Below are positions 26,528 to 27,552 of a DNA stretch of 64,000 nucleotides, in pieces. A program made the position numbers and the translations under genes. The notes beneath the pieces were generated by a model. It ran no database searches and was not told where the DNA came from. It worked only from the letters and a program-made list of their open reading frames with translations. Within the stretch, counting starts at the first letter, position 1, and each line of letters starts with the position of its first letter. The stretch is taken from the NCBI GenBank assembly GCA_031292375.1, contig JARLHF010000004.1, forward strand, positions 479-64,478. Reading direction: 5' to 3'. The DNA is from Chlamydiales bacterium. Its GTDB lineage: Bacteria > Chlamydiota > Chlamydiia > Chlamydiales > VFKH01.

Positions 26528-26554
26528 AAAAATGACTACAACCTCTTGTATACA

Positions 26555-26722
26555 TTAGACTTCTTGCGTAATTACATTTGCTTGTTAAAATTGTCTTTTT
26601 TGACATCTTTATCGTTAAATTTTTCAACCATATGTTCACATATGGTTGAAAAATTTATCAATAAATCTACTCAAAAAATTTCAATTTTTCTAAGCAAAGC
26701 TAATTATGCAAGAAGTCTATTA
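26555..26722. mobile_element. 168-bp palindromic MITE-like element, copy C (best-preserved central hairpin)
   Basis: TA-flanked inverted termini. Central perfect hairpin TCAACCATAT-GTTCAC-ATATGGTTGA. Confidence 0.8.
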
Positions 26723-26769
26723 TCACCTAGAGATTCTCATAACTCCAAAATTATGTCTAAAAGAATATT

Positions 26770-27552
26770 CTACGCTTCTAACTTTTCAATATGTTTATGT
26801 ATGTACTCACGAAGAGCATAACCTTCTAGGCGCTGCTGAAGCACTTTAAAATTTTCTATAACACTTCTAATATCCAATATCCCAATATCAATATCCATAC
26901 GAGGACATTGTGCCATATCTTCAGAAGGACTTTTCCAAGAACTCATTTTTTCTTTAAGTAACCCACCTACCTCTAGAGAAATTTTCTTTACTAAAAGATC
27001 TATATCCATCTGCTTATTTTCAAAAATAACATTATCTATTAAATCTTCAGCCTCTTTTGTAAGATCCCTTATTCTTACATAAAGTTTTCCCATGTTAGGT
27101 TTTGCACTTTTTAAGTTGGACATTACGCCGTAGTAACTTTCTATATCCAAACTTCCCTGCATTTCCCTTTGTAAACGATATATTTCCAGGATTCGTCCAA
27201 TACAAAGATTACCCTTTTTTATAGCGGCATCATCCAAAACCCATTTTTTTGCAACTGTCATTTTAAAGTACTGCTCAATAAAACAAGAAGTGCTTAAATC
27301 CTTTACTCGATCCCATTCATCTGGGGCAAGAAACTTATTTATAACCTCTTTTAAAGCACTAAAACAATCAGAAATTTCTTCTTCCAAAATCTCTTGATTA
27401 AGTTTAGTTTGAAGCTTTTCACATTTTGTTTTTTCTTTTTTCAAAAGATAAAAAAAACCTACCTTATCTTTTTCATCGATGGTAATTTTTTTCTTTTTTT
27501 TAAAAAAAAGAAATTTATTAAAAGCTTTTTTGAGTAGCTTCATACGATTCAT
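26770..27552 (-). CDS. Hypothetical protein, third gene of the paralogue operon
   Basis: 260 aa, Lys-rich N-terminus, helical/charged. ATGA overlap with the upstream gene. Confidence 0.6.
   Translation of the reverse strand: MNRMKLLKKAFNKFLFFKKKKKITIDEKDKVGFFYLLKKEKTKCEKLQTKLNQEILEEEISDCFSALKEVINKFLAPDEWDRVKDLSTSCFIEQYFKMTVAKKWVLDDAAIKKGNLCIGRILEIYRLQREMQGSLDIESYYGVMSNLKSAKPNMGKLYVRIRDLTKEAEDLIDNVIFENKQMDIDLLVKKISLEVGGLLKEKMSSWKSPSEDMAQCPRMDIDIGILDIRSVIENFKVLQQRLEGYALREYIHKHIEKLEA

Follow-up and report, generated by a model that had tools for sequence, protein, structure and literature searches.

The Correia/NEMIS repeats of Neisseria, ERIC, RUP, EFAR of Enterococcus faecalis and RPE of Rickettsia are intergenic elements of 100–170 bp that form long stem-loops. 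All of them are frequently transcribed together with neighboring genes, and Correia hairpins are cut by RNase III. The duplication made by Correia elements is TA, and for most of these hairpin repeats a transposase partner has not been identified. Direct repeats of 2–3 bp are made by the ISL2 group, as is known from ISfinder. ISCaa3 belongs to this group of the IS5 family; related elements were noted in Orientia, Legionella, Regiella and Parachlamydia, and those of cyanobacteria form the sister group (PMC3196728). The signature of bacterial IS5 elements is a 5'-ANT-3' duplication, which is also found in the eukaryotic Pangu group (PMC4482050).

Herein, we describe a family of palindromic repeats in a 64-kb stretch of DNA, referred to as the window. 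Its proteins identify the host as an uncultured Parachlamydiaceae-like chlamydia of the amoeba type. The CysS protein encoded in the window is ~65% identical to Protochlamydia amoebophila proteins and 72% identical to its best database match, and Pfam hits to Omptin and, weakly, to Pom are on record for a neighboring gene. We propose, with a probability of roughly 85%, that the repeats are a family of non-coding hairpin MITEs that was moved by an IS5-family, ISCaa3-like transposase and that duplicates an A-N-T target. An initial annotation of this DNA had already called the elements MITE-like, and the label is right: the family is non-autonomous and hairpin-forming, and in its length (less than ~500 bp), its terminal inverted repeats (TIRs), its duplication of fixed length, its dispersed copies and its termini shared with ISs it has the appearance of a standard bacterial MITE.

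Copies, boundaries and target duplication

The window contains four copies of a 162-bp element, one of them clipped at the window edge, and one 81-bp derivative. These copies, their duplications and their neighbors are as follows.

1..148, plus strand: copy A, element positions 15-162, the left 14 nt being lost to the window edge (nhmmer E 2e-37)
149-151: right ATT duplication of copy A
277-1638, plus strand: Na/alanine symporter gene (Pfam-assigned), with copy A 125 bp upstream
14386-14814, plus strand: 142-aa ORF with a CxCxSG..CC motif, the 5' neighbor of copy B, with copy B 38 bp downstream
14853..15014, plus strand: copy B, 162 bp (nhmmer E 1.4e-45)
14850-14852 and 15015-15017: ATT duplications of copy B
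15127, plus strand: methyltransferase gene, the 3' neighbor of copy B, with copy B 112 bp upstream
26527, minus strand: start of cysS, 29 bp from copy C, which lies upstream of it and is flanked by two minus-strand genes
26557..26718, plus strand: copy C, 162 bp, the copy named in the initial annotation
26554-26556 and 26719-26721: ATT duplications of copy C
Within copy C: perfected central stem, CAACCATATG/CATATGGTTG
26770-27552, minus strand: ORF on the other side of copy C, which lies 51 bp downstream of its stop
53122, minus strand: start of an MFS transporter gene, with copy D 55 bp upstream
53178..53339, minus strand: copy D, 162 bp, inverted relative to copies A–C
53175-53177 and 53340-53342: ATT duplications of copy D
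Within copy D: perfected central stem with a swapped pair, CAAGCATATG/CATATGCTTG
53472-53547, minus strand: tRNA-Arg, on the other side of copy D
59439, minus strand, and 59617, plus strand: starts of a hydrolase gene and a phosphoribosyltransferase gene, with copy E in the divergent region between them
59517..59597, no strand assigned: copy E, 81 bp
59514-59516 and 59598-59600: ATT duplications of copy E
Within copy E: a mini-element of ~50 bp (terminus, GCTTTACTTATA, terminus), its left terminus split after base 12-14 by an unrelated palindrome
59527..59561, no strand assigned: the palindrome nested in copy E, 35 nt, ATATACACAAACAA-gttcaagaa-TTGTTTGTGTATA

Repeat finding delimited a family of 162–171 nt at 1-151, 14849-15019, 26553-26723 and, inverted, 53174-53344. 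Repeat finding and a profile built from nine members recovered copies A–D and no others in the 64 kb. In a multiple alignment, copy E (~59515-59601) had just the ends in common with the full copies. The pairwise identity of the window copies is 94–98%, with 96–98% among copies B, C and D and 94% between copies A and C. The count of termini and the repeat and profile searches place the five copies within a few bases of where the initial annotation had put them. Its length of 168 bp, however, has to be corrected to 162 bp once the duplicated target is excluded. Copy E had been described as a deleted derivative; it is indeed a short copy, but a simple deletion does not describe a mini-element with a palindrome inside its left terminus. 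The 35-nt palindrome inside copy E is a member of a second, separate repeat family of the window.

Mapping of genes and ORFs agrees with the earlier statement that all copies are intergenic; copy C lies between co-directional genes. Copies A to E are located 125, 112, 29, 55 and 19 bp upstream of the next start codon, respectively, and both orientations relative to the downstream gene are found among them. The element has no coding capacity. Spurious read-through ORFs of 66 and 76 aa cross copies B and D, and their products are similar low-complexity peptides, so the false peptides that had been reported are real artifacts of these copies.

The TIRs of the element are 18 bp long (AGACTTCTTGCRTAATTA). 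The terminus GACTTCTTGCRTAATTA was matched eight times in the window when up to two mismatches were allowed, and all eight matches were exact, while only 0.04 matches were expected from shuffles; the claim of inverted-repeat termini is therefore upheld. The full element reads AGACTTCTTGCRTAATTA...TAATTAYGCAAGAAGTCT, with a length of 162 bp and a 3-bp A-N-T target duplication. In the window copies, ATT is found on both sides (for the edge-clipped copy A, on the right side).

To define the flanks beyond the window, the exact sequence TAGACTTCTTGCRTAATTA was searched for in public genomes, which gave at least 120 stretches, and the flanks of 133 ends were inspected. At position -3, 95% of the 139 non-redundant ends had an A; the next base was variable. 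Identical 3-bp flanks were found in 30 out of 36 two-ended elements, and these were always A-N-T (ATT in 14, AAT in 12, AGT in three and ACT in one). The middle base was the same on both sides in 32 of the 36 elements, against a chance expectation of 0.36 (binomial P ~1e-10). Since an extension of the terminus would require the complementary base instead, the matching middle base indicates a duplication. Four further elements, found by an internal pattern that left the flank unconstrained, had the flanks AAT/AAT, AAT/AAT, ATT/ATT and ATT/ATT. For loci L001–L120, a T at position -1 was required by the search pattern itself; the evidence that this base belongs to the duplication comes from the window copies, L125/L126 and L128/L131–L133. 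The TA flanks described in the initial annotation are thus replaced by a 3-bp A-N-T repeat (ATT in the window), with its matched middle base and its conserved A at -3.

Spread of the terminus and of the family

The exact terminus was present in more than 120 DNA stretches from Bacteria, CPR bacteria and Archaea. Among bacteria, the exact 19-mer was found in many Chlamydiota MAGs, in Rickettsia/Tisiphia, in Amoebophilus, Cytophagales and other Bacteroidota, in Microcystis, Oscillatoria and Acaryochloris, and in Spiroplasma, Eubacterium, Clostridiales and Sulfurimonas. The CPR bacteria with the 19-mer were Paceibacterota and Gottesmanbacteria. Archaeal MAGs with the 19-mer were those of Nitrososphaerales, Methanolliviera, Syntrophoarchaeum and Nitrosocosmicus, the last with more than 20 contigs in which it was mostly located at an end. 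A dnl1-type ATP-dependent DNA ligase is encoded on one of the Nitrosocosmicus contigs that have the terminus. This is consistent with the contig being genuinely archaeal, while contamination of MAGs is possible in general. The sequence just inside the terminus falls into ~58 unrelated clusters, which suggests that only the end, the presumed binding site of the transposase, is common to these elements.

Exact matches to the window proteins were found only in the Logan assemblies of runs SRR23300978 and SRR23300979, which represent the same strain. One Logan contig (L134) stops inside copy D and another (L122) inside copy E, and contigs that break in these copies indicate that they are repeats in that genome too. 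No empty site or presence-absence polymorphism was found by exact-protein look-ups of the flanking genes, for which the same-strain assemblies alone matched; the nearest other CysS, at 72% identity, comes from an organism too distant to compare individual insertion sites. Copies of the same family in other chlamydial MAGs adjoin different genes, and the flanks of the window copies are unrelated to each other. The only neighbor that recurred across genomes was a YchJ-like gene (L128 and L133), and there both the distance and the duplication differ. The initial annotation had named copies at orthologous positions as an observation that would speak against mobility; the insertion sites in other genomes proved to be non-orthologous. 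A search of the plasmids in PLSDB gave no match.

A wider interpretation of these data is that the termini define a pan-prokaryotic "Tourist-like" superfamily, characterized by AGACTTCTTGCRTAATTA and A-N-T, which would comprise dozens of unrelated MITE and IS families with recent moves between domains, and that, in addition, the hairpin of at least the chlamydial 162-bp elements is actively maintained for mobilization or for use by the host. Such a superfamily would span Chlamydiota, Rickettsiales, Bacteroidota, cyanobacteria, Spiroplasma, Firmicutes, CPR, Nitrososphaerales, Methanolliviera and Syntrophoarchaeum. We hold this combined interpretation only tentatively and regard it as rather doubtful. 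One locus (L037, 5659-5820) has the 162-bp backbone with both termini swapped in concert to AGACATCTTTCAAAAC, a sequence close to the terminus of an IS of Neochlamydia AcF84. This concerted swap fits the superfamily with a maintained hairpin.

Pairing of the arms

The fold of each copy is a single long hairpin with 65 pairs, and its energy is -45.5 kcal/mol for DNA (z -13.2) and -68.1 and -70.0 kcal/mol for RNA of the two strands (z ~-15). The description of the element as a single long hairpin made of imperfectly complementary halves is fully borne out by these values. To evaluate covariation of the arms, we used nine gap-free full-length members, three from the window and six from chlamydial/PVC MAGs and metagenomes, and a structure derived from one of these nine related sequences. 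In this set, 93.3% of the cells pair on the predicted hairpin. Changes on both sides were found in 16 out of 65 pairs, compared to 5.5 ± 1.6 in shuffles, and none of 500 shuffles reached 16. When the structure was shifted by 1–3 columns, at most three double-change pairs were obtained. Ten of the 16 double-change pairs are internal, beyond the termini.

Among the four window copies there are 12 variable columns, five of which (72, 89, 91, 92 and 93) are located in the central stem. In seven other copies the right arm reads GCTCTCAAAA and leaves an internal loop, which is the ancestral state. In copies C and D, the loop became the exact complement of the left arm via adjacent changes in one arm (columns 89 and 91–93). 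Copies C and D differ from each other at three columns, two of which are the partner pair 72/89 (C-G in copy C, G-C in copy D). We estimate that the chance of this pair difference under random substitutions is below 1%, and the compensatory pair that had been reported between these two copies is genuine. At pair 70/91, where copies B–D have A-T and other genomes G-C, copy A retains an A.C intermediate, indicating that stepwise compensation occurs too.

Perfect short palindromes were found elsewhere, composed of the left arm and its own complement (L037 and L093) or of the right arm and its own complement (L065). They occur alongside simple deletion derivatives, in which the left arm is followed by the complement of the right arm (L128 and L133). 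An established source of mutations at quasipalindromes is intramolecular template switching (for example, PMC7202029 and PMC8604942). Clustered changes in one arm together with arm duplication are the signature of this process, and correction of a quasipalindrome by template switching can yield clustered one-arm changes without selection.

The covariation could also mean that the hairpin itself is selected because its structure serves as a signal in RNA or DNA, for example as an RNase III site, an mRNA stabilizer or attenuator, or a cruciform bound by a protein. In favor of such a signal are the excess of doubly changed pairs over the shuffled and slid controls, which extends beyond the termini, the intermediate in copy A, and the location of every copy in a 5' or intercistronic region. 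However, no Rfam model matched the element at gathering thresholds, and in E-value mode the only matches were plant miRNA-precursor models, which are generic long hairpins, at 18–36 bits versus cut-offs of 83–211. Scans of copies B, C and D revealed no promoter or terminator consensus inside the element. Relative to the downstream gene, copies of either orientation are found, and the insertion sites are non-orthologous. The numbers of G.T and A.C mismatch cells are similar (14 and 8), so that neither strand is favored as RNA. In addition, columns 89 and 91–93 all shift in one arm towards complementarity, and the palindromes in which the same arm occurs twice (L037 and L065) point to templated mutation. 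We therefore judge a selected signal to be improbable.

Because there is no strand bias and multi-base changes are clustered, upkeep at the DNA level is favored over selection on RNA. Most likely, pairing is maintained at the DNA level, by template-switch homogenization of the arms or by a constraint of transposition, and selection for a particular RNA is probably not what keeps the arms paired. Of the earlier suggestion of selection on structure, the strong covariation of the arms stands, while the lack of clear strand asymmetry and the clustered one-arm changes call for caution over the selective part.

Proposed transposase partner and comparison with known systems

Several larger elements carry a transposase between termini of this kind. 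A contig of Methanolliviera (L106) contains an element of ~1.1 kb with one exact terminus and the other differing at three of 18 positions. Its ORF of 307 aa matches Pfam DDE_Tnp_4 (2.4e-21), HTH_Tnp_4 (3.1e-13) and DDE_Tnp_1, with weak NCBIfam IS5 matches. In Spiroplasma ixodetis (L063), an element of 1064 bp with an AAT/AAT duplication encodes a transposase of the DDE_Tnp_4/HTH_Tnp_4 family; one of its ends is an exact terminus and the other has a single mismatch. In Neochlamydia sp. AcF65 (L126), an intact IS of 943 bp encodes an IS5 family transposase, P0008, which carries a frameshift. The ends of this IS, AGACTTCTTGCTTAAATA and AGGCTTCTTGAGTAATTA, both depart from the MITE terminus at two of 18 positions. 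The IS of Neochlamydia AcF84 has the terminus AGACCTCTTTCGAAACT, which is five of 18 positions off, and ATT/ATT flanks were found at both Neochlamydia loci (L125 and L126). A copy of ISCaa3 has the terminus AGAGATCTTCTGAAACC, likewise five of 18 positions off, and A-N-T flanks, with ATT on one side and AAT on the other. The MITE terminus compared with these ISs was AGACTTCTTGCGTAATTA.

In chlamydial MAGs, a homologous gene starts ~58 nt after the exact terminus (MGKYE.LK...RLTG..R.TFEKM). At two loci (L113 and L051), N-terminal codons are fused to the C-terminal ~38 codons of the transposase beside an exact terminus; these appear to be classic chlamydial internal-deletion derivatives. The reconstructed chlamydial transposase had 1746 database homologues at E<=1e-10. 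Among the 120 homologues listed of these 1746, all had PF13613 and nearly all had PF01609 and PF13359 as well. Those listed include the "IS5-like element ISCaa3 family transposase" of Amoebophilus asiaticus and IS5 family transposases of Neochlamydia, Legionella, Orientia, Rickettsia/Tisiphia, Wolbachia, Spiroplasma and Nostoc. The Orientia transposases are ~52% identical to the chlamydial query. The termini, the type of transposase and the ANT duplication fit a derivative of the IS5 family, ISL2 group, and the MITEs are presumably of this ISCaa3-like origin. The AcF65 IS may be a candidate for cross-mobilization of the MITE.

Within the 64-kb window, no transposase of the IS5/ISCaa3 type was found by tblastn with archaeal and chlamydial queries at E<=1, in agreement with the initial annotation, which had reported none. 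An autonomous partner was also looked for in the same sample; the short Logan contigs with the closest transposases (P0003 and P0005) were from other runs.

The initial annotation had proposed a TA-inserting MITE of the IS630/Tc1-mariner superfamily, with its mariner-like enzyme encoded in another part of the genome. Bacteria commonly harbor MITEs derived from IS630, such as mISOt2 of Orientia, and every copy here reads ...T-A-GACTTC...GAAGTC-T-A..., which resembles TA flanks. This apparent TA, however, is composed of the last base of the duplication and the first base of the element. TA insertion leaves unexplained the conserved A at -3 and a direct repeat of 3 bp whose middle base agrees, and every transposase found within or beside these termini is of the IS5-family DDE_Tnp_4/HTH_Tnp_4 type, with none of the IS630 type. 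For these two reasons, the A-N-T duplication and the enzymes at the termini, the IS630/Tc1-mariner proposal is rejected as very improbable. A REP/BIME-like palindrome spread by a RAYT (an IS200/IS605-type tyrosine transposase), or another non-DDE repeat, would likewise be palindromic, intergenic and multi-copy, but with its 162 bp, 18-bp inverted termini, 3-bp duplication and DDE partner the element is so unlike REPs, which make no target duplication and are described in PMC3733652 as 20–40 bp long with a GTAG or CGTC tag at one end, that we give this possibility practically no credence.

We thus return to non-coding hairpin MITEs moved by an ISCaa3-like enzyme. A transposase of the IS5-family type, encoded elsewhere in the genome or formerly present, would bind both termini, excise the element and re-insert it at A-N-T sites in AT-rich intergenic DNA by a 3-nt staggered cut. 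The two halves are related copies of one arm, so that a single strand folds to a hairpin of ~65 bp. The arms could then be kept alike via either of two routes. In the first, intramolecular template switching would correct one arm against the other, and it may also have generated the perfect short palindromic derivatives. In the second, an equivalent transposase-binding sequence would be needed at both ends. Since the copies lie either between co-directional genes or 16–125 bp ahead of a start codon, a transcript crossing one of them would carry a long dsRNA stem, a plausible target for RNase III or block to translation; the cleavage of Correia hairpins is the precedent for this side effect.

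In the searchable literature we found neither this terminus, whose sequence gave unrelated primer matches only, nor any account of MITEs in Chlamydiae. The elements leave existing knowledge of how MITEs work unchanged. They are of practical concern, as false ORFs arise from the copies and short-read assemblies of this organism break at them (two Logan contigs); with the copies masked, gene calling and binning of environmental chlamydiae would become better. They offer a marker of transposition that is concrete and datable, in a phylum commonly deemed genomically quiet, and tie chlamydial transposition to the pool of ISCaa3-type ISs common to amoeba-associated bacteria. The co-varying arms provide a clean natural case in which selection can be weighed against template-switch mutagenesis as the source of "compensatory" changes in palindromic repeats, while the wide spread of an identical terminus gives a handle on IS traffic between domains.

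The closest known systems are the ISs of the ISCaa3/ISCaa2 type (IS5 family, ISL2 group) of Amoebophilus asiaticus, with relatives in Neochlamydia, Parachlamydia, Orientia, Legionella, Rickettsia, Wolbachia, Spiroplasma and cyanobacteria (PMC3196728). The architecture of the terminus is alike (AGAC/G.TCTT..., 18–22 bp), A-N-T flanks are shared, and DDE_Tnp_4 and HTH_Tnp_4 were found on the exact MITE terminus in the chlamydial remnants. The host range is shared as well, enriched in intracellular and protist-associated bacteria and with cyanobacteria as neighbors. In contrast to these ISs, the window elements are non-coding, 162 bp rather than 0.9–1.1 kb long and unrelated in their internal sequence. 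The termini of ISCaa3 and of the AcF84 IS are also more distant from the MITE terminus than are those of AcF65, the nearest intact chlamydial IS found.

A similar pairing of MITE and IS is described in the obligate intracellular Orientia tsutsugamushi, where mISOt1, present in many copies, shares its termini with the IS5-family IS ISOt1 (PMC2575882). Its sequence differs from that of the window element, and the text of PMC2575882 gives no termini or duplications. We infer that the Orientia match to our query (P0027) is ISOt1. A "novel widespread MITE" of Cardinium (PMC9769881) was considered and set aside, as it is IS982-derived and unrelated.

The long hairpin repeats of the Correia, ERIC and EFAR types are alike in shape, while their termini and duplication differ from those of the window element. 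EFAR had been suggested by the 37% GC and the palindromic repeats of 170 bp, and was dropped because the host is chlamydial and the partner IS5-like.

Eukaryotic Tourist MITEs, PIF/Harbinger and Pangu elements have homologous transposases (DDE_Tnp_4/IS5-related) and a 3-bp duplication in AT-rich DNA, and the target of Pangu is exactly 5'-ANT-3', as is the case here (PMC4482050). PIF/Harbinger elements differ in that their duplication is TWA and a second, Myb-like protein is needed, while here the hosts are prokaryotic and no second ORF was seen. In the Tourist/PIF-Harbinger system, many unrelated MITE families are united by terminus and duplication alone, comparable to the 58 subterminal clusters that share the terminus described here.

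Short derivatives of the hairpin element

Seven loci outside the window (public genome stretches, L-numbers) carried shortened members of the MITE family, ranging from 42 to 75 bp:

L037 2938-3012; L093 5545-5619; L065 5409-5482; L082 7822-7863
L089 534-584; L128 4676-4750; L133 5843-5917

Some are perfect palindromes in which one arm is doubled (left+left' or right+right'); others are plain left+right' deletions. The occurrence of doubled-arm palindromes alongside left+right' deletions suggests that the short derivatives arose by fold-back or template switching.

Spread of the terminus and effect on assemblies

In a scan of genome contigs, the exact 19-nt terminus (the MITE end plus the flanking T) was present in at least 120 stretches (L001-L120) whose source taxa lie very far apart, Archaea and CPR bacteria among them; some of the MAGs may be contaminated. 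One Nitrosocosmicus contig with the terminus carries an archaeal-type DNA ligase, in keeping with true archaeal DNA. The terminus frequently lies ~35 nt from a contig end, and one and the same element forms the end of more than 20 contigs of the Nitrosocosmicus MAG JAKDMR01. Two short-read Logan contigs of the window's own organism, L122 and L134 (SRR23300978, SRR23300979), stop inside copies E and D; these copies fragment assemblies of its genome.

Other repeats in the window

The window also holds a second repeat family, with six matches to ACACAAACAAGTTCAAGAAT at up to 3 mismatches vs 0.01 expected:

13726-13798, 15075-15100, 44626-44671, 53435-53477 and 59527-59561: second-family repeats, in 5' intergenic regions

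ACACAAACAAGTTCAAGAAT is mostly contained in a 35-nt palindrome, ATATACACAAACAA-gttcaagaa-TTGTTTGTGTATAT. The family lies ~60-95 nt from MITE copies B and D and is nested within copy E; a search of all 133 fetched loci found it in none. It may act as an operator or promoter motif (compare its reverse complement, ATTCTTGAAC...), or else represent a separate mini-palindrome.

Repeats were also seen within genes:

10552-11739, minus strand: ORF enclosing four tandem imperfect units (10999-11571; ~144 nt each, 71-81% identical)
27549-29048, minus strand: gene of 499 aa
29072-30577, minus strand: adjacent gene of 501 aa

Given its tandem units, the ORF encodes a protein with internal repeats. The adjacent genes have a 169-nt stretch in common at 72% identity (repeat D5) and are probably tandem paralogues.

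Exchanged termini and chlamydial insertion sequences

L037 5659-5820: 162-bp hairpin backbone with other termini (MAG labelled Verrucomicrobia, JAEYWL010000028)
L123 1378-2808 and L096 5172-6418: ISCaa3-like IS of Chlamydiae with termini AGACATCTTGCATAACC

The L037 element has the hairpin backbone of the window MITE, with both ends exchanged in concert for AGACATCTTTCAAAAC... This looks like a terminus swap, whereupon the mobilising transposase would change. In the AGACATCTTGCATAACC-ended chlamydial IS, ~1.43 kb in length, a passenger ORF lies 3' of the transposase gene within the inverted repeats, and matches Pfam 23S_rRNA_IVP, a four-helix-bundle protein. The exchanged L037 ends resemble the terminus AGACCTCTTTCGAAACT of a different ISCaa3-like IS, that of Neochlamydia AcF84.
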